From a virus (taxonomy: Duplodnaviria; Heunggongvirae; Uroviricota; Caudoviricetes): 14,011 bases of DNA. The notes beneath the pieces were generated by a model. It did no database searches. It saw only the letters and a list, made by a program, of their open reading frames with translations, and had not been told where the DNA came from. The stretch lies in the IMG/VR virus record IMGVR_UViG_2855308460_000004; one strand, 5' to 3'. The position numbers were made by a program, and so were the translations under genes. How positions within the stretch are numbered: the stretch's first letter is position 1; each line of letters opens with the position of its first letter. Of the stretch, positions 2,291 through 10,755 are shown in pieces.

Positions 2291-4657
2291 ATGTTTAAAA
2301 ATAGATCGATGAAAAGAATGGTAGATAAAATTCTTAGCTACAGACTTAAAATGAATGCGTTATCTGATGAAGAGTTAAGAAGTAAAACATCAGAATTCAA
2401 AACGCGCATAAATAAAGGCGAGAGTCTTGAAAAAATCCTTCCAGAAGCGTTTGCAGTTGTGAGAGAAGCCGCAAGACGTACTCTTGGTATGGAGCATTTT
2501 CCCGTTCAGTTAATGGGAGGTATTGCCCTACATAAAGGATATATAGCTGAAATGAAAACTGGTGAAGGAAAAACACTTGTCTCTACCTGCCCGGCCTATC
2601 TGAACGCATTAACAGGAAAAAGTGTTTACGTAGTAACGGTCAATGATTATTTAGCAAAGCGAGATGCTGAGATGATGGGCCAAGTCCATCGCTTTTTAGG
2701 TTTAACCGTTGGAACCGTATTAAGCGAAATGGGTACATTGGAGCGGAAAGATGCTTATCAATGTGATATTACCTATGTGACAAATAATGAATTGGGTTTT
2801 GATTATTTACGTGATAATATGGCAATGACAAAAGAACAGCAGGTCTTAAGAGGATTAAATTATTGTATCATTGATGAAGTAGACTCAGTGCTAATCGACG
2901 AAGCCAGAACTCCACTTATCATTTCTGGACAAAGTGACCGTTCAACCAGCCTTTATGTTGCAGCTGATTTTTTGGCGAAAAAACTACATAAGGGTGAACC
3001 ATCTAAAAAATACCGAAAAGTAGATATGCTGATGGGAGAAGATATTGAGGAAGATGGAGATTTCATCATAGAGGAAAAAGATAAAAATGTGCATTTGACT
3101 GCATATGGCGTTGATGAAGTCGAAAGATTCTTTCATATTGAGAATTTAGCAGATCCGGAAAATATTGATATACAACACCATATGAATATAGCGTTAAAAG
3201 CTAACTATATCATGAATATAGACAAGGACTATGTTGTTAAGGATAATGAGATTTTGATTGTGGATGAATTTACTGGAAGGACCATGCAGGGAAGAAGATA
3301 TTCAGATGGCCTTCATCAGGCAATTGAGGCGAAAGAGAATGTAGATATTAAGAAAGAATCACGTACGATGGCAACCATTACATTTCAGAACTTCTTTAAT
3401 AAGTTTGAAAAAAAAGCAGGTATGACAGGAACTGCCAAGACAGAAGAGAAAGAGTTCAAAAGTACCTACCATATGCCAGTCATAGAAATAGCAACAAATA
3501 AGCCAGTAATTCGTAAGGATTATGAAGATGTTGTATATAAAACCAAAAAAGAAAAATATGAAGCAATTATAAAATCAATTGAAGAATCTTATGAAAAAGG
3601 TCAGCCTGTTTTAGTAGGTACGATTACTATTGAAACATCAGAATACTTATCTAAGCTGTTGAAGAAAAAGGGAATTCCTCACAATGTCCTGAATGCCAAG
3701 CATATTGAAGAAGAGGCAGAAATCATCATGAATGCAGGAAAATTTAAGGCTGTTACGATTGCTACAAATATGGCTGGCCGAGGAACAGATATCAAATTGG
3801 ATGCAGATGCAAAAGATACAGGTGGTCTTAAAATAATTGGCACGGAACGTCATGAATCAAGACGTATTGATAATCAGCTCCGCGGTCGTTCTGGACGTCA
3901 GGGAGATCCAGGTGAATCAAGATTCTACATTTCCTTAGAAGATGACTTGATGAGGCTGTTCGGTTCGGAAAATATGAAACAGATGTTTGAAAAAGCAGGT
4001 ATAGAAGAAGGAGAAGAACTTCAGCACAAACTCCTTACAAAAACCATTGAAAACGCACAGAAACGGGTTGAAAATAATAACTATGGAATCCGTGAGCAAT
4101 TATTGAAATTTGATCAGGTCAATAATGAACAGCGTGAAATTATCTATGCTGAGCGAAATTTATTATTGGAACAGACTAGTGTTAAGGATACAATATTGGA
4201 AATGATGAAAAATAGCATTGACTTGATTATAGATGATTATTTTAAAGAAAAAGCAGAGCATACAGAAGTTGATTTTGAGGAAATGTTGATGAAGATTTTC
4301 GGCCTTATACCAATAAGAATGAATATAAAGGTATTAAATGCCTATACGAAAAAAGAACTGTTAAAATTTATGAATGAAGAAATTGAAGATTTTTATCACA
4401 AAATAGAACAGAAATTTGAAGACATTGAAGATTTAAGAGTAATGGAGCGGCGTATTTTTCTAAAAGTAATTGATATAAACTGGATGAACCATATTGACAA
4501 TATGGAAAAATTAAAAGAAAGTATATCTCTACAAGCATATGCAGGACATGATCCTGTGGTAGAATATAAACTCAATGTGTATGAAATGTTTGATGAAATG
4601 TTAAAAACAATTAGAAATGAAACAGTAAAAACAATAACACATATGGTTTATCAATAA
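2291..4657 (+). CDS. secA: Preprotein translocase ATPase SecA (orphan paralogue lacking the C-terminal tail and zinc-binding motif)
   Basis: MKTGEGKT Walker A, DEVDSVLIDEARTPLIISG, TNMAGRGTDI, GTERHESRRIDNQLRGRSGRQGDPG. 788 aa ending TITHMVYQ with no GRNDPCPCGSGKKYK.CC. Confidence 0.97.
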   Translation: MFKNRSMKRMVDKILSYRLKMNALSDEELRSKTSEFKTRINKGESLEKILPEAFAVVREAARRTLGMEHFPVQLMGGIALHKGYIAEMKTGEGKTLVSTCPAYLNALTGKSVYVVTVNDYLAKRDAEMMGQVHRFLGLTVGTVLSEMGTLERKDAYQCDITYVTNNELGFDYLRDNMAMTKEQQVLRGLNYCIIDEVDSVLIDEARTPLIISGQSDRSTSLYVAADFLAKKLHKGEPSKKYRKVDMLMGEDIEEDGDFIIEEKDKNVHLTAYGVDEVERFFHIENLADPENIDIQHHMNIALKANYIMNIDKDYVVKDNEILIVDEFTGRTMQGRRYSDGLHQAIEAKENVDIKKESRTMATITFQNFFNKFEKKAGMTGTAKTEEKEFKSTYHMPVIEIATNKPVIRKDYEDVVYKTKKEKYEAIIKSIEESYEKGQPVLVGTITIETSEYLSKLLKKKGIPHNVLNAKHIEEEAEIIMNAGKFKAVTIATNMAGRGTDIKLDADAKDTGGLKIIGTERHESRRIDNQLRGRSGRQGDPGESRFYISLEDDLMRLFGSENMKQMFEKAGIEEGEELQHKLLTKTIENAQKRVENNNYGIREQLLKFDQVNNEQREIIYAERNLLLEQTSVKDTILEMMKNSIDLIIDDYFKEKAEHTEVDFEEMLMKIFGLIPIRMNIKVLNAYTKKELLKFMNEEIEDFYHKIEQKFEDIEDLRVMERRIFLKVIDINWMNHIDNMEKLKESISLQAYAGHDPVVEYKLNVYEMFDEMLKTIRNETVKTITHMVYQ

Positions 4658-4805: not shown

Positions 4806-5288
4806 ATGAACGTTAAATTTTCTGACCAGGAACTGTATCTTGATGCAAATTCAATTTTTTTAGCTGGGCCAACAATGAGGAATAGTACTTTTTCAAAATC
4901 CTGGAGAAAAAAAGCATGTATGATTCTTGAAGAATTCAAATTCGATGGAACTGTATATGTTCCTGAATATTATTCCAACAAGGAATTTGAAGATGATGCT
5001 TATATTAATCAGACAAAGTGGGAGTGGGAATGCCTGGATATAGCAGGTGTAATCGTATTCTGGGTACCTAGACAGATGAAGGATATGCCTGCATTGACAA
5101 CGAACATTGAGTTTGGTAGATACCTGACGAAAAAAAAAGATTCTGTAATTCTAGGGTACCCAAGATACACAGAAAAGATGAAGTATATGGACCTTCTTTA
5201 TCGGACAGAAACGGGAAGAATCCCAGAAACAACTTTGGGTGGAACTCTTAAAAATGCAGTATCACAATTAGATTACTTAAACGAATAA
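4806..5288 (+). CDS. Nucleoside 2-deoxyribosyltransferase-like protein (Nuc_deoxyri_tr2-type)
   Basis: SIFLAGPT.R....SWR, VYVPE, Q..WE...L..A.VIVFWVPR, MPALTTNIEFG with the family Glu retained. Confidence 0.85.
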   Translation: MNVKFSDQELYLDANSIFLAGPTMRNSTFSKSWRKKACMILEEFKFDGTVYVPEYYSNKEFEDDAYINQTKWEWECLDIAGVIVFWVPRQMKDMPALTTNIEFGRYLTKKKDSVILGYPRYTEKMKYMDLLYRTETGRIPETTLGGTLKNAVSQLDYLNE

Positions 5289-5305
5289 TATATTTTGTGT
5301 ACTTG

Positions 5306-5329
5306 AAAGAGGGCGTAAGCCTTCTTTTT
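5306..5329 (+). terminator. Intrinsic terminator
   Basis: AAAGAGGGC-GTAA-GCCTTCTTT plus TT (one G-U pair, GNRA loop). Confidence 0.85.
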
Positions 5330-5392: not shown

Positions 5393-5534
5393 ATGAATTA
5401 TAACAAAGAAATAATCTGGGAAATATTCGACTTATGAACTATTTAGTGACTGGATTGGAATGTATGCATTATCAATAGCAAATTTGATAAATGTTGGAAG
5501 TGATGTCTGGAACTATAGGGAAGAACAATTTTAA
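5393..5534 (+). pseudogene. Frameshifted, truncated gene remnant resembling the N-terminus of Clostridia mobile-element proteins annotated as N-6 DNA methylase
   Basis: RBS GAAAGGAAG and ATG 5393 give MNYNKEII; a second frame from 5415 reads SGKYSTYELFSDWIGMYALSIANLINVGSDVWNYREEQF* (stop 5532-5534). The family link is from memory of the SGKYS.YE.FSDW..M.A.SIAN...W..RE pattern. Confidence 0.5.
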
Positions 5535-5629: not shown

Positions 5630-5636
5630 CATATTA
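5630..5636 (+). promoter_or_regulatory. CATATTA putative -10 of the NAD salvage operon
   Basis: 37 nt upstream of ATG 5667; ATA at 5611-5613 lies 16 nt upstream (sigmaE-like spacing). A second CATAAT is at 5593. Confidence 0.4.
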
Positions 5637-5666
5637 TCAAGGAATAAAATAAAAAAGGAGAGAAAA

Positions 5667-6215
5667 ATGAAAGAGAAAATTTTAGTAGTAGTAGATATGC
5701 AATATGATTTTGTTTATGGGAGTTTAGGAACACCGGAAGCACAGGCAATTGTACCTAAGGTTATTGAAAAAGTCACTAATTTTGATGGAACCGTAGTGTT
5801 TACCAGAGATACCCATGAAGAAGACTATTTAGAAACATTTGAAGGGAAAAAACTGCCAGTGGTTCATTGTGTTGAAGGAACGTCTGGATGGGAAATCATA
5901 ACAGAAATTTTAAACGCTGGAAGTTTTAAGCGTCCACAAAAGGATTTATCATGGATATACGACAAAACAACATTTGGCTGTATTAATCTGGCAAAGGATA
6001 TCCAAAACAAATTATTCATTGAACAGGATGAGCTGGAAATTGAGTTAATTGGACTTTGCACAGATATTTGTGTTGTTACAAATGCTTTATTATTAAGGGC
6101 TTATATGCCAGAGGTACCTATTAGGGTTGACTCAAGTTGCTGTGCAGGAGTTACAAAAGAAACACATGAGGCAGCCTTGAAAACGATGCAGATGTGTCAA
6201 ATCGATATAGTTTAA
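5667..6215 (+). CDS. pncA: Nicotinamidase (isochorismatase-family cysteine hydrolase)
   Basis: VVDMQYDF (Asp), TRDTH and HC metal ligands, DKTTFG (Lys), GLCTDICV (Cys); directly upstream of pncB. Confidence 0.9.
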   Translation: MKEKILVVVDMQYDFVYGSLGTPEAQAIVPKVIEKVTNFDGTVVFTRDTHEEDYLETFEGKKLPVVHCVEGTSGWEIITEILNAGSFKRPQKDLSWIYDKTTFGCINLAKDIQNKLFIEQDELEIELIGLCTDICVVTNALLLRAYMPEVPIRVDSSCCAGVTKETHEAALKTMQMCQIDIV

Positions 6216-6269
6216 TAATGAGAGAGTAGGAATGACATTTCAAGTAAATATAAAAGGGAGAATAAAATA

Positions 6270-7742
6270 ATGAAAACACAGAGCGCAGAAAGAAATTTAA
6301 GCATGATTATGGATTTTTATGAGTTAACAATGGCAAATGGGTATTTCAAACATATGGACAGAAATGTGCAGGTTGCATTTGATGTTTTTTACCGTAAAAA
6401 TCCTGATAATGGTGGATATGCAATTTATGCCGGACTTAAGCAAATCATTGATTATATAAAAGCGTTGCATTTTGATGAAGATGATATTGCTTATTTGAAA
6501 TCACAGGATTTATTTGACAAGGATTTTCTTGATTATTTACGGCACTTTGCATTTACAGGAAGCGTTTGGTCATTTGATGAGGGAGAGATTATGTACCCTA
6601 ATGAACCAGTTATCACAGTAATTGCACCACTTATTGAGGCACAGCTTGTAGAGACAGCCATCCTGTTACAGTTTAATCATCAGAGCTTAATTGCAACTAA
6701 GACCAATCGTATAGTGCAGGCCGCAGATGGAAGAGGTGTGTCTGATTTTGGAGCCAGAAGAGCTCATAACATGGATGCCGCAGTATATGGAGCAAGAGCG
6801 GCTTATATTGGTGGAGCAATCGGAACAGCAACTGTACTTGCTGGACAGATGTTTGATATTCCGATTAGTGGAACGATGGCGCATAGTTGGGTTATGTTTT
6901 ATCCGGATGAATACACAGCTTTTAAAACATATGCTTTAACATACCCAGATGCAACAACATTGCTAGTGGATACCTATAATGTTTTGGAAAGTGGTGTCCC
7001 TAATGCAATCCGAGTAGCGAAAGAAGTGCTGGAGCCAATGGGAAAGCGGCTAAAGGGAATCAGATTGGATAGTGGTGACCTTGCTTACCTATCTAAAAAA
7101 TCTAGGAAGATGTTAGACGAAGCCGGTCTAACTGATTGTAAAATTGTGGTATCAAACAGTCTGGATGAATATACAATCCGTTCCCTTATTAATCAGGGAG
7201 CATGTATTGACTTATTTGGTGTTGGCGAGCGATTGATTACAGCTAAATCAGATCCTGTGTTCGGTGGAGTCTACAAACTTAGTGCAGTAGAAGAAAATGG
7301 CGAATTCAAGCCAAGAATTAAAATTTCTGAGAACGTAGAAAAAGTTACCAATCCAGGTCTTAAGCGAGTCTGGAGAATCATGAACAAGGATGGTATTGGA
7401 GTTGGTGATTTATTAACTTTATGGGATGAAGATCCTAGAGATACAGCTGGCTCTTATGAAGTGATTGACACCCGAAATCCTTGGAAGAAAGTGGTTCTTG
7501 ACCATTGTAGTTTTGTTCCATTACAAAAACTTTATATTAAGGAAGGACGAGAAACTAATGAGTGTGAATATCTGAGTAATACAAAATATATAAAGGAACA
7601 TGTCGCGAAGCGTCTTAAGCATGAAGTTTGGGATGAAGAAAAACGTTTTGAAAACCCACATCTCCATTATCTTGATATGTCACCCGCTTTATACAAATTA
7701 AAGATGGATATGTTAAATGAGCATGGAGCAATTGAAAAATGA
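6270..7742 (+). CDS. pncB: Nicotinate phosphoribosyltransferase
   Basis: DFYELTM, DFGARRAH, GTMAHSW (phospho-His), LLVDTY, IRLDSGDL, GGVYKL. Confidence 0.97.
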   Translation: MKTQSAERNLSMIMDFYELTMANGYFKHMDRNVQVAFDVFYRKNPDNGGYAIYAGLKQIIDYIKALHFDEDDIAYLKSQDLFDKDFLDYLRHFAFTGSVWSFDEGEIMYPNEPVITVIAPLIEAQLVETAILLQFNHQSLIATKTNRIVQAADGRGVSDFGARRAHNMDAAVYGARAAYIGGAIGTATVLAGQMFDIPISGTMAHSWVMFYPDEYTAFKTYALTYPDATTLLVDTYNVLESGVPNAIRVAKEVLEPMGKRLKGIRLDSGDLAYLSKKSRKMLDEAGLTDCKIVVSNSLDEYTIRSLINQGACIDLFGVGERLITAKSDPVFGGVYKLSAVEENGEFKPRIKISENVEKVTNPGLKRVWRIMNKDGIGVGDLLTLWDEDPRDTAGSYEVIDTRNPWKKVVLDHCSFVPLQKLYIKEGRETNECEYLSNTKYIKEHVAKRLKHEVWDEEKRFENPHLHYLDMSPALYKLKMDMLNEHGAIEK

Positions 7743-8245
7743 TTATAAGTGGATTTGCCGGGATAGGGAAGACTTATCTCGGCAATAAATATAAGGATAT
7801 CATAGATTTGGAATCCTCTGACTATAAATGGGTTTATTCAGATGAATTAAATGGTATGGATAGGGAAAAACGGAAAGGCTTAACAGAGCGCCTCTTTAAT
7901 CCTGAATGGCCAGAAAACTATATTAATGCGATTCTGGAAACAAAGAAAAAATATAAAATTGTATTGATATCGCAGAGTATTGAGATTTTGGCAGAATTAC
8001 GATTAAGAAAAATACCATTCATTGTTGTAATACCGGATATAAACTTAAAAGAAGAATATATTGCAAGATGTAGGAAACGAGGAAATAACGAAGTCTTTAT
8101 AGGATTTATTTCTGATTATTACGAATACTTTATCAATAAACTGATGAGTAAGGATGATCCAAAAGTTATCTTAAAGTCAGGTGAATATCTAGAAGATGTT
8201 CTAATCAAGGAAGGATATTATAAGGAGAGAGAAGATGGATTATAA
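7739..8245 (+). CDS. Uncharacterised P-loop NTPase, probable small-molecule/NMP kinase fold
   Basis: Walker A GFAGIGKT (7751-7774), IDLESSDY, lid-like EYIARCRKRGN; 4-nt ATGA overlap with pncB and 11-nt overlap with nadE. Confidence 0.85.
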   Translation: MIISGFAGIGKTYLGNKYKDIIDLESSDYKWVYSDELNGMDREKRKGLTERLFNPEWPENYINAILETKKKYKIVLISQSIEILAELRLRKIPFIVVIPDINLKEEYIARCRKRGNNEVFIGFISDYYEYFINKLMSKDDPKVILKSGEYLEDVLIKEGYYKEREDGL

Positions 8246-10181
8246 TAAATATTTCATAAGGGCAGCTGTGGCAACACCTAAGATAAAAGTTGCGGATACA
8301 GAATTTAATTCTGAGGCAATTGTAAATTTAATTCTGGAAGCAGAAAAAAATCAGGTTAAAATATTAGTACTGCCTGAACTATGTGTGACAGGATATACAT
8401 GCCAGGATTTATTTCTTCAGAAGACATTGCTAACTGAAGCATATAAATCAGTGAACCATATAATGACAAAAACATCGAAGTGTAATTGTCTTGCTGTTAT
8501 TGGATTCCCATATGAACATAATGGAAAACTTTATAATGTTGCCGGACTTTTAAAAAATGGAAAAATGCTCGCAATTGTCCCTAAGGTTTATCTACCGAAC
8601 TATCAGGAGTTTTATGAAGCCAGGCATTTTGCAAAAGGGAAAACAAAAGTAGAATATGTAGATTGGGTCAACCCACATGAAACTTATCCATATGAAGTAC
8701 CATTTGGCACAAATATTCTATTAAGAAACAAAGTGATGGATGTTATAATCGGAACGGAAATTTGTGAGGATTTATGGGTGCCGGATCCAATAAGTACGAA
8801 ACATGCATTAGCAGGTGCCAATATTATTGTTAATCCATCTGCATCAAATGAAATTATAGGGAAAAGAGCTTATCGAAAACAGTTAGTCGAGACCCAGTCT
8901 GCAAGGCTTATTGCAGCATACATATATGCAAGTGCAGGAGAGGGTGAATCTACTCAGGATTTAGTCTTTAGCGGCCATAATTTGATTGCAGAAAATGGAA
9001 CAATATTAGGAGAGCGGAAGTATGAAACAGGAAAATTGTTAATCAGAGATATTGACATTGAAAAACTGAATGCGGAGCGAAGAAGAACAACCACATATGA
9101 AACAGACAATCAGGACTATACAATAGTTGATTTTGAATATGAAAAAAAAGAAATTCAAAAAGTAAGTTTAAAAAGATTCATACCAGCTTCACCATTCGTG
9201 CCTTCAGATGAGCTTACAAGAATAGAAAGATGTAAGGAAATCATGCTACTGCAATCCTTAGGACTGAAAAAACGGATGGAACATATTGGTTGTAAAAAGA
9301 CAGTGATTGGAGTATCTGGAGGTCTTGATTCAACCTTGGCATTACTTATTATCAACAAGACATATGAAGCACTTGGACTTCCTAAAGATGGAATTCTGGC
9401 TGTCACGATGCCGTGTTATGGGACAACAAACCGTACATATGAAAATGCATGTGACTTGGCAAAAGAGATTGGCTGTACACTAATGGAAATCCCAATAAGG
9501 GAATCTGTAACACAGCATCTAAAAGATATCGGACACGATATGGAAAATCATGATGTGACATATGAAAATGCTCAGGCAAGAGAGCGGACACAGGTATTAA
9601 TGGATCTTGCTAACCAGGAAAATGCAATTGTTGTTGGAACAGGAGATTTGTCTGAACTGGCATTGGGATGGTGTACTTATAATGGAGACCACATGTCAAT
9701 GTATGCTGTCAATGCAGATGTTCCAAAAACCCTTGTCCGTTACCTGGTTGATTATTATGCACATGCTGAAAGCAGTGAAGCATTAAAAAAGACACTTTGC
9801 GATATCCTTGAGACTCCGGTATCGCCTGAATTGCTTCCTCCAGATAAAGGCGGGAAGATAATTCAAAAAACGGAAGAGAAGATTGGACCATATGAACTAC
9901 ATGACTTCTTTTTATATTACATGATGCGATATGGATTTGGTCCAGAGAAGACATTTATTTTAGCAAGAGAAGCATTCAGCGGAACATACACAGAAGAAAC
10001 AATACTTAAATGGATGAAAGTATTTTATAAAAGATTCTTCAGCCAGCAGTTTAAGCGTTCCTGCTTGCCGGATGGCCCGAAAATTGGTTCTGTCAGTCTG
10101 TCTCCACGAGGAGATTTAAGAATGCCAAGTGATGCAAGTGTTAACCTTTGGATGAAAGAGTTGGATGGAATAGTCTTATAA
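8235..10181 (+). CDS. nadE: Glutamine-dependent NAD+ synthetase
   Basis: Nitrilase-like N-domain with the Glu-Lys-Cys triad (LPEL, VPKVYLPNY, EICEDLW) and synthetase domain GVSGGLDST, YENAQARER, GTGDLSE, PVSPEL. Confidence 0.97.
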   Translation: MDYNKYFIRAAVATPKIKVADTEFNSEAIVNLILEAEKNQVKILVLPELCVTGYTCQDLFLQKTLLTEAYKSVNHIMTKTSKCNCLAVIGFPYEHNGKLYNVAGLLKNGKMLAIVPKVYLPNYQEFYEARHFAKGKTKVEYVDWVNPHETYPYEVPFGTNILLRNKVMDVIIGTEICEDLWVPDPISTKHALAGANIIVNPSASNEIIGKRAYRKQLVETQSARLIAAYIYASAGEGESTQDLVFSGHNLIAENGTILGERKYETGKLLIRDIDIEKLNAERRRTTTYETDNQDYTIVDFEYEKKEIQKVSLKRFIPASPFVPSDELTRIERCKEIMLLQSLGLKKRMEHIGCKKTVIGVSGGLDSTLALLIINKTYEALGLPKDGILAVTMPCYGTTNRTYENACDLAKEIGCTLMEIPIRESVTQHLKDIGHDMENHDVTYENAQARERTQVLMDLANQENAIVVGTGDLSELALGWCTYNGDHMSMYAVNADVPKTLVRYLVDYYAHAESSEALKKTLCDILETPVSPELLPPDKGGKIIQKTEEKIGPYELHDFFLYYMMRYGFGPEKTFILAREAFSGTYTEETILKWMKVFYKRFFSQQFKRSCLPDGPKIGSVSLSPRGDLRMPSDASVNLWMKELDGIVL

Positions 10182-10206
10182 AAAAGAGAGGAAATCCTCT
10201 CTTTTT
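10181..10206. terminator. Bidirectional intrinsic terminator between nadE and the Uma2 gene
   Basis: AAAAAGAGAGG-AAAT-CCTCTCTTTTT, a perfect 11-bp stem. Confidence 0.92.
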
Positions 10207-10755
10207 TTATATATTTTCAAAAATATCAGTAAGTTTGAGCTGTATATTAGGAAAAGATAGCATAGTGATTTCCAGGTCGGCATTGTAATCAGAATCGTGA
10301 GGATCATCAACCAATATAAAATAGTTAATAAGCTGATACATATCATTTTGTAAGTGATAGATTTCTATACTGCGTGAATTAACATCGATTATCCAATATT
10401 CCTCCACCTTCATTTTTTGATATAATTCTTTTTTTATGGTCTTATCTTTTAATGCAGTGGCCGGACTAAGAGTCTCAGCGATGAATTTAGGAATTCCAAG
10501 ATATTGTCCCTTTTGGATTTTTTTACGATCGCACACAACCATTACATCAGGTATGACATAATCGCTTTTTTCACGATCATATTTCCAATCTAAATTTTCA
10601 GCAAACACAAGACACAGGCTTCCTTTTAATGAGCTTGATATCAGTCTATATAAATTCAAATTAACAGTTCCATGTCTGTAATCGGCAGATGGAGACATAT
10701 CAAAGACTATTCCTTCGATAAATTCCTGCTTGCTATAATCATCTAATAATGGCAT
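10207..10755 (-). CDS. Uma2 family (DUF820) PD-(D/E)XK endonuclease-like protein
   Basis: EFIEG..FDMSP....HG, VIPDVMVVCD, PKFIAETLSP.T...D...K..LY....VEEYWIID; RBS GGAGGTG. Confidence 0.92.
   Translation of the reverse strand: MPLLDDYSKQEFIEGIVFDMSPSADYRHGTVNLNLYRLISSSLKGSLCLVFAENLDWKYDREKSDYVIPDVMVVCDRKKIQKGQYLGIPKFIAETLSPATALKDKTIKKELYQKMKVEEYWIIDVNSRSIEIYHLQNDMYQLINYFILVDDPHDSDYNADLEITMLSFPNIQLKLTDIFENI

Follow-up and report, generated by a model that had tools for sequence, protein, structure and literature searches.

A predicted complete nicotinamide-to-NAD+ salvage route on a giant, probably plasmid-like element of gut Lachnospiraceae

The 14,011-nucleotide stretch of DNA analyzed here (IMG/VR record IMGVR_UViG_2855308460_000004; hereafter, the window) carries a pncA-pncB-X-nadE operon, in which pncA, pncB, and nadE are predicted to encode three of the four enzymes of the deamidating (Preiss-Handler) route from nicotinamide to NAD+. 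The window corresponds to approximately 262.6 to 276.6 kb of the 472,371-bp contig QSGP01000005.1 (GCA_003467385.1, an Enterocloster aldenensis assembly), and a gene for the remaining enzyme, a NadD-family protein, is located about 248 kb from the operon on the same contig. The contig is probably part of a giant, low-GC (guanine-plus-cytosine), plasmid-like mobile element of gut Lachnospiraceae, which would thus encode all four steps. The explanation favored here, which we hold to be reasonably probable, is that the element controls NAD+ homeostasis through this complete route, in connection with its own NAD+-consuming enzymes.

The salvage operon and the nadD locus

Four open reading frames (ORFs) on the plus strand make up pncA, pncB, X, and nadE, and their ends are identical to those given in a preliminary description of the same DNA, which reported four co-oriented genes closed by one terminator. 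Such a terminator was found directly at the end of nadE. The features of the operon are as follows, with lengths in amino acids (aa) or nucleotides (nt).

5305..5328, plus strand: terminator-like hairpin that ends a nucleoside 2-deoxyribosyltransferase-like (NDT-like) gene and sets the operon apart from this upstream gene
5630..5637, plus strand: CATATTAT motif, ending 29 nt ahead of the pncA start codon; candidate promoter element
5667..6215, plus strand: pncA, 182 aa, nicotinamidase-type isochorismatase-family hydrolase (PF00857, E value of 1.4e-21)
6270..7742, plus strand: pncB, 490 aa, nicotinate phosphoribosyltransferase (NF006695, 654 bits; cutoff, 469)
7739..8245, plus strand: X, 168-aa P-loop protein with a predicted nucleoside/nucleotide-kinase-like fold, of a phage family; variable cargo between pncB and nadE
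8235..10181, plus strand: nadE, 648 aa, glutamine-dependent NAD+ synthetase (NF002730, 861 bits; cutoff, 473)
10180..10207, plus strand: strong intrinsic terminator at the end of the operon (12-bp stem, T-run), common to the convergent Uma2 gene

The closest solved structure to PncA is Pyrococcus horikoshii PncA (1ILW; E value of 8.5e-12), and the active-site residues D10, K100, and C135 are kept, together with the metal site formed by D48-x-H50 and H67. PncB contains the three nicotinate phosphoribosyltransferase (NAPRT) Pfam domains (N-terminal, catalytic, and C-terminal), and its identity is unambiguous from its domains and model score. NadE combines a CN_hydrolase (glutaminase) domain with an NAD_synthase domain, the SGGLDS loop of which is at residue 361; the stretches LPE and EICED in the N-terminal domain resemble a glutaminase site, as judged by eye without alignment to a solved NadE.

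The stop codon of pncB is coupled to the start of X by an ATGA overlap, and the nadE start codon lies 11 nt within X and is preceded by a strong Shine-Dalgarno site. With these couplings and the flanking terminators, pncA-pncB-X-nadE is, as read from its sequence, one transcription unit. The ATATTAT core of the CATATTAT motif is unchanged across five aligned element variants, with the surrounding upstream sequence diverging, and the motif may be a promoter element of the type used by the element. An Rfam search ahead of the operon detected no NAD+ or other riboswitch. Among the window proteins, Pfam and NCBIfam scans identified none of the NadD/NadM, Nudix, NiaR, or NrtR type, in agreement with the preliminary description as regards regulators, and tblastn searches with NadD, Nudix, KptA, and sirtuin queries gave no match in the window and its 2- to 6-kb flanks. 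The control region suggests that the operon is driven by the element's own program and not by NAD-responsive, NiaR, or NrtR control.

The operon had been described as lacking nadD, which holds for the window and fails for the replicon. A NadD-family gene is located at approximately 19.5 to 20.1 kb of QSGP01000005.1 (locus L028, 10001-10639; P0256). Its 212-aa product is annotated as nicotinate (nicotinamide) nucleotide adenylyltransferase [Enterocloster aldenensis] and passes the TIGR00482 model with 119.4 bits (cutoff, 112.45). The protein has the motifs TIAH (within GSFNPPTIAH) and ISSTKVR; its TxxH motif, in place of the bacterial HxGH, is presumably of the kind found in eukaryotic NMNATs. 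It shares only 27% identity with the host-type NadD of G001, a Lacrimispora genome that carries a related element and was used as a stand-in for host comparison. Since this gene is on the same contig as the operon, the element is predicted to carry the whole Preiss-Handler route, with the operon supplying three of the four enzymes. The workarounds proposed earlier, namely, the use of host NadD or a Francisella-type NadE acting on nicotinate mononucleotide (NaMN), are unneeded with a NadD on the replicon. The Francisella-type candidate was rejected as superfluous, and the NadE found here is of the long glutamine-dependent type.

Within the nadD locus (L028; approximately 9.5 to 30.1 kb of the contig), nadD is flanked by two CobB-type sirtuin genes, one of which encodes a protein scoring 321 bits against the NAD-dependent protein deacylase model NF001752. 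The locus also contains genes for a 302-aa DUF7768 protein, NrdD, NrdG, TatD, and an HD_4 protein, as well as a 69-aa ORF with an AcrIC5 domain. In G001, the gene for the second NadD is on a 31% GC contig, with genes for a 301-aa DUF7768 protein and a SIR2-family protein next in line (L027), and the order nadD-DUF7768-SIR2 is thus common to the window's contig and G001. On a 396-kb contig labeled Hungatella hathewayi, the operon and a NadD gene are found together.

In the proposed route, PncA would convert nicotinamide to nicotinate, PncB would combine nicotinate with phosphoribosyl pyrophosphate (PRPP) to form NaMN, the distant and divergent NadD-family protein would convert NaMN to nicotinate adenine dinucleotide (NaAD), and NadE would produce NAD+ from NaAD, glutamine, and ATP. 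Nicotinamide, which is released by sirtuins, inhibits these enzymes, and nicotinamidase relieves the inhibition. Through the route, nicotinamide from NAD+-consuming enzymes, foremost the CobB-type sirtuins of the element itself, would be removed and reused; a Macro-SIR2 fusion protein encoded beside pncA in relatives would be another source, and any host NADase would also feed the route. The element would therewith hold a second full copy of a pathway that is also present in the G001 host. The presence of sirtuin genes at each of the two NAD loci speaks for the recycling of nicotinamide that the element itself generates.

A giant low-GC element and its host duplicates

The GC content of the window and the related loci ranges from 32.5% to 35%. 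The same gene order (NDT-like, pncA, pncB, nadE, usually ydjM, and a choline-binding protein gene) is present on the 396-kb Hungatella hathewayi-labeled contig, a 151-kb contig labeled Lacrimispora amygdalina, and several metagenome contigs. Syntenic copies thus occur under three genus labels, and none of the contigs with these genes is longer than 0.56 Mb. The datasets containing the window DNA are gut and wastewater metagenomes only.

G001 has two copies each of NadE, PncB, and NadD, with one set on contigs of 31 to 34% GC and the other on contigs of 39 to 46% GC. The window proteins show 70% (NadE) and 79% (PncB) identity with the low-GC copies and 55% (NadE) and 51% (PncB) identity with the host copies. 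In the NadE tree, the five element copies are united, with 100/100 support, in one clade set off by a long branch, and the G001 host copy groups among the other chromosomal ones. NadE was detected in 356 of the 401 sampled Lachnospiraceae genomes, with the element-type copy in G001 only and all others being 55 to 61% identical. In addition, the low-GC contig with the operon in G001 encodes a 736-aa VirD4-type coupling protein. An AAA_10/VirB4 search in this genome gave one weak match, on a low-GC contig, and a Pfam search for two phage families in the same relative, TerL_ATPase and HK97 capsid, gave none. A megablast search of the whole window against phage and plasmid collections had no match, nor did a NadE search of viral contigs.

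The composition, spread, host duplicates, NadE tree, rarity, VirD4 protein, contig sizes, and an 18-gene tRNA array after the window indicate that a giant mobile element carries these genes as cargo and, as judged from the relative G001, that the host has its own chromosomal set besides. In gut Lachnospiraceae, the DNA is thus probably a mobile element that is giant, low in GC, and plasmid-like. The earlier view of the operon as cargo-borne is upheld by the low GC, the separate NadE clade, the host duplicates in G001, and the synteny across three genus labels. An ordinary chromosomal salvage operon of the host, with nothing mobile about it, has only a very slight chance of being the right explanation and is largely refuted. 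It would fit with pncA, pncB, and nadE being common housekeeping genes, as the frequency of NadE among the sampled genomes illustrates, and with the presence of cell-type genes such as secA in the neighborhood. However, the element is about 10 GC points under the host genes, second, host-type gene copies are present in G001, the element NadE is a separate clade of a type found in 1 of 401 species genomes, and the same locus recurs under three genus names with no gene-bearing contig above 0.56 Mb. The preliminary description would have been overturned had these genes been the host's only chromosomal pncB and nadE, and this is not the case in G001, where the host has pncB, nadE, and nadD genes besides those of the element.

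Gene X and the genes around the operon

X has no match among the Pfam and NCBIfam models. The protein starts with the Walker A sequence GFAGIGKT and has conserved DLES, RKG, NPxWPxNY, and RxxxRGN motifs. The nearest folds to its AlphaFold model (predicted local distance difference test score of 90.7) are those of AK6/Fap7, TmrD, guanylate kinase (Gmk), and NRK1, with template modeling (TM) scores of only about 0.5. X belongs to the phage family phrog_4182 (E value of 4e-35), and 205 phage records contain a homolog, most of them from jumbo and T4-like phages; overall, the family spans approximately 3,600 representative clusters. In five phages that were inspected, no NAD genes were found near the homologs, which are situated there among early genes of unknown function. 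A distant homolog (L009/L010, on a JGI contig of 189.9 kb) was seen in a phage-like series of small ORFs of one orientation, alongside genes for a T4-type RNA ligase and an AAA_33 kinase.

In the window, X alone fills the slot between pncB and nadE, and in the related loci L004 and L015, it shares the slot with a 141-aa ORF. In L006, X is shortened to 121 aa, and in L014, the slot is without X and contains four unrelated small ORFs, including a zinc-ribbon and a DUF551 ORF; pncA, pncB, and nadE are intact in both. The absence or truncation of X next to intact salvage genes argues that it is accessory cargo and not a step of the pathway. X is best explained as an accessory gene of a phage family, kinase-like in its modeled structure and dispensable for the pathway, with a helper role as a possibility. 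X was also considered for the missing NadD-like step and was rejected, as it has a P-loop kinase fold without a nucleotidyltransferase motif, relatives lack it or have it shortened, and a genuine NadD is encoded elsewhere on the contig.

The operon is bordered by the following features.

4806..5288, plus strand: NDT-like gene (PF15891, E value of 3.4e-12), its own transcription unit here
5409..5525, plus strand: N6-methyltransferase remnant of 39 codons (tblastn with the L004 methyltransferase, 77% over 39 aa, E value of 2e-15)
10207..10755, minus strand: Uma2-family gene (PF05685; PADLOC candidate PDC-S03, E value of 2.5e-48), not part of the pathway

In all relatives seen (L004, L014, and L015), the NDT-like gene precedes the NAD genes, and in L014 it directly adjoins pncA. 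The NDT-like enzyme may act on a nucleoside or nucleotide to free its pyridine base, which would feed the pathway. In L004, the interval from the NDT-like gene to pncA holds a gene for the Macro-SIR2 fusion (158-1477), followed by a methyltransferase gene and a 161-aa ORF. The fusion consists of a macrodomain of the O-acetyl-ADP-ribose deacetylase type and a CobB-type sirtuin, and it is intact in L004, in the block directly upstream of pncA. The window has evidently lost this Macro-SIR2/methyltransferase/161-aa block by deletion, which left the methyltransferase remnant and the conserved pncA leader; no remnant of the Macro-SIR2 gene was found in the window by tblastn. In L005, L006, and L015, the fusion is split, frameshifted, or interrupted by an IS605-type element, which is a repeated pattern of decay.

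The slot after nadE is also variable: the window has the Uma2 gene there, L004 and L015 have an R2K ATP-grasp gene, and the slot is empty in L006 and L014. The other flanking genes of the window encode YdjM and a choline-binding protein; together with the NDT-like and Uma2 (PDC-S03) genes, they bear out the accessory-type flanks reported in the preliminary description. Farther upstream, secA (2291-4657) encodes a full-length, 788-aa SecA on this low-GC element and is kept in relatives (L015), and a gene for a DUF1810 protein (355-786; E value of 1.8e-55) is located upstream of secA. An array of 18 tRNA genes (L003, 16812-18955) begins about 0.5 kb past the end of the window, with no rRNA gene nearby.

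Known NAD+ systems and the role of the route

The operon was put forward earlier as a candidate new module. A deamidating NAD+ gene set like that of the element is, however, also present, within one neighborhood, in Bacillus phage G (JN638751.1; 497 kb; gp273 to gp283), where a Nudix hydrolase, an isochorismatase hydrolase, NAPRT, a KptA-like protein, NadD, and an NAD synthetase are annotated within about 7 kb, with small unknown ORFs between them. The enzymes shared with phage G are 29 to 48% identical, the highest value being that of PncB. Phage G differs in that nadD is inside the cluster, NadE is annotated as a short protein of 275 aa, Nudix and KptA-like genes are included, and the genome is that of a virion-forming phage. 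No accessory gene is common to the phage G cluster and the window, the likeness being confined to the four enzymes, and this and the 29 to 48% identities indicate that the two sets are analogous and not orthologous.

A study of 668 jumbo phage genomes from guts reported complete NAD+ pathways in 174 of them (Li et al., Microbiome 2024; PMC11662467). These NAD-jumbo phages of animal and human guts have Preiss-Handler clusters (pncB, nadD, and nadE) and many NAD+-consuming enzymes, and they were proposed to use them for counter-defense against Sir2-type NAD+ depletion (PMC11662467). The element described here resembles them in having a complete NAD+ pathway on one element of more than 200 kb, with PncA, PncB, NadE, and NadD on a 472-kb contig. 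The NAD-jumbo genomes are classed as phages, and the named Preiss-Handler examples belong to the Kuafu clade, the predicted hosts of which are all Bacteroidota (PMC11662467), whereas the present element appears plasmid-like, as judged by a relative with a coupling protein and no terminase or capsid match. It also differs in belonging to Lachnospiraceae, in including pncA, and in the location of nadD far from the other genes. It is not a new kind of system, because both the gene set and the counter-defense hypothesis are in the literature, the pncA-pncB-nadD-nadE set being annotated in phage G and the Preiss-Handler clusters of jumbo phages having been published in 2024 (PMC11662467).

NARP1 (Adps and Namat), NARP2 (Nampt and Nmnat), and NARP3 (2026; PnuC and a NadR-like bifunctional enzyme) are amidated systems of two steps or two genes, and their counter-defense function has been experimentally proven. 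The genes of the element are similar to these in being mobile-element genes for NAD+ rebuilding but would constitute a four-enzyme deamidated route. As regards the signatures of these systems, the window has no PRPS-like protein, its phosphoribosyltransferase being a NAPRT equivalog (NARP1); no Nampt, with PncA and NadE marking the deamidated route (NARP2); and no PnuC or NadR-like enzyme (NARP3). The chromosomal pncA, pncB, and nadE genes of Bacillota belong to the same families with the same chemistry, and the sampled Lachnospiraceae NadE proteins are the 55 to 61% identical ones mentioned above; in contrast to the chromosomal sets, no NiaR/NrtR regulator accompanies the element copy, phage-type small genes interrupt it, and it branches as a separate clade.

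Two further comparisons concern plasmids. The Hodor megaplasmids are conjugative elements of more than 300 kb from gut Bacillota that were earlier filed among huge phages; they have a G1 or G2 backbone (Rep_3, ParA/ParB, sortases, and giant surface proteins), their GC content is 44 to 47%, and the preprint makes no mention of NAD genes (Yuan et al., bioRxiv 2026; PMC12934698). Membership in this group was not adopted because the GC content here, 32.5 to 35%, is lower by about 12 points. Plasmids of PLSDB that encode PncB were also rejected as precedents, since the top match, Monoglobus pectinilyticus "plasmid 17" (NZ_OY725741.1), resembles a piece of chromosome, with fusA, mutS, miaB, and prs beside pncB.

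A role in reusing the nicotinamide that the sirtuins of the element release is at least as probable as one in antidefense. Several points weigh against the homeostasis proposal and its plasmid-like setting. PncA scores 22 bits against the NCBIfam equivalog NF008623, below the cutoff of 174; this model derives from the 213-aa enterobacterial type of nicotinamidase, and with PncA under the equivalog cutoffs, its substrate assignment is based solely on the active-site residues and the best PDB match. The Macro-SIR2 gene is lost from the window and disrupted in three relatives, yet the salvage genes are intact; as they have outlasted the decayed adjacent sirtuin, the operon would be kept for more than that one enzyme. 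Moreover, the duplication of the host pathway was shown in one relative only (G001), and the markers that distinguish plasmids from phages were examined only there, for a few families.

Alternatively, the route could rebuild NAD+ from nicotinamide that is freed by SIR2-, TIR-, or DSR-type NADase defenses of the recipient, which would allow the element, or phages carried by it, to establish despite abortive NAD+ depletion. Such counter-defense, which is compatible with the favored explanation, is an unlikely but not negligible alternative. It fits with the location of the genes on a mobile element and their duplication of a host pathway, the AcrIC5-domain ORF near nadD, and the variable defense-like cargo adjoining the operon. 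In addition, NADase defenses yield nicotinamide, NARP1 to NARP3 prove that NAD+ rebuilding is a real form of counter-defense, and the same idea has been published for the NAD-jumbo phages. However, the route is costly, requiring four enzymes from two loci about 248 kb apart as well as PRPP, two ATP, and glutamine, and, in contrast to the compact amidated NARP1 to NARP3, it makes no use of the ADP-ribose. The nearest NAD+ consumers are the element's CobB sirtuins, which are of a housekeeping type and not defense SIR2 proteins, and PADLOC returned no match for any pathway protein. NAD+-depletion defense is not known to be an established selective pressure on conjugative plasmids, which also weighs against counter-defense. 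Two more elaborate proposals appear doubtful to a similar, greater degree. One is that this is the first counter-defense NAD+ reconstitution of a conjugative giant plasmid, by a deamidated route and with X as an NAD-linked helper enzyme; if it is true, the large orphan phage family phrog_4182, which is common in jumbo and T4-like phages, would gain a function. The other is that X adds a fifth, new step, for example, as a nicotinate or nicotinamide riboside kinase that feeds the pathway, which would make this a novel pathway variant. The translational coupling of X to pncB and nadE, its P-loop kinase fold with human NRK1 among the structural matches, and its conserved motifs, which appear catalytic, are consistent with a fifth step, but X is missing in L014 and cut to 121 aa in L006 beside intact pncA, pncB, and nadE. 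Furthermore, the homologs in the five inspected phages are in an early-gene setting away from NAD genes, the family is as wide as approximately 3,600 representative clusters, and the structural matches are weak and scattered across many kinase types.

The predicted gene set indicates that giant plasmid-like elements of gut Lachnospiraceae, and not jumbo phages alone, carry a private and complete nicotinamide-to-NAD+ salvage route, with its genes beside the NAD+-consuming sirtuins of the element. It adds to a view of such elements as semi-autonomous, as tRNA arrays, secA, and ribonucleotide reductase genes are present on the same contig. The genes also provide a cloneable set for asking whether a deamidated route may counter NADase immunity, which has so far been shown for amidated routes only.

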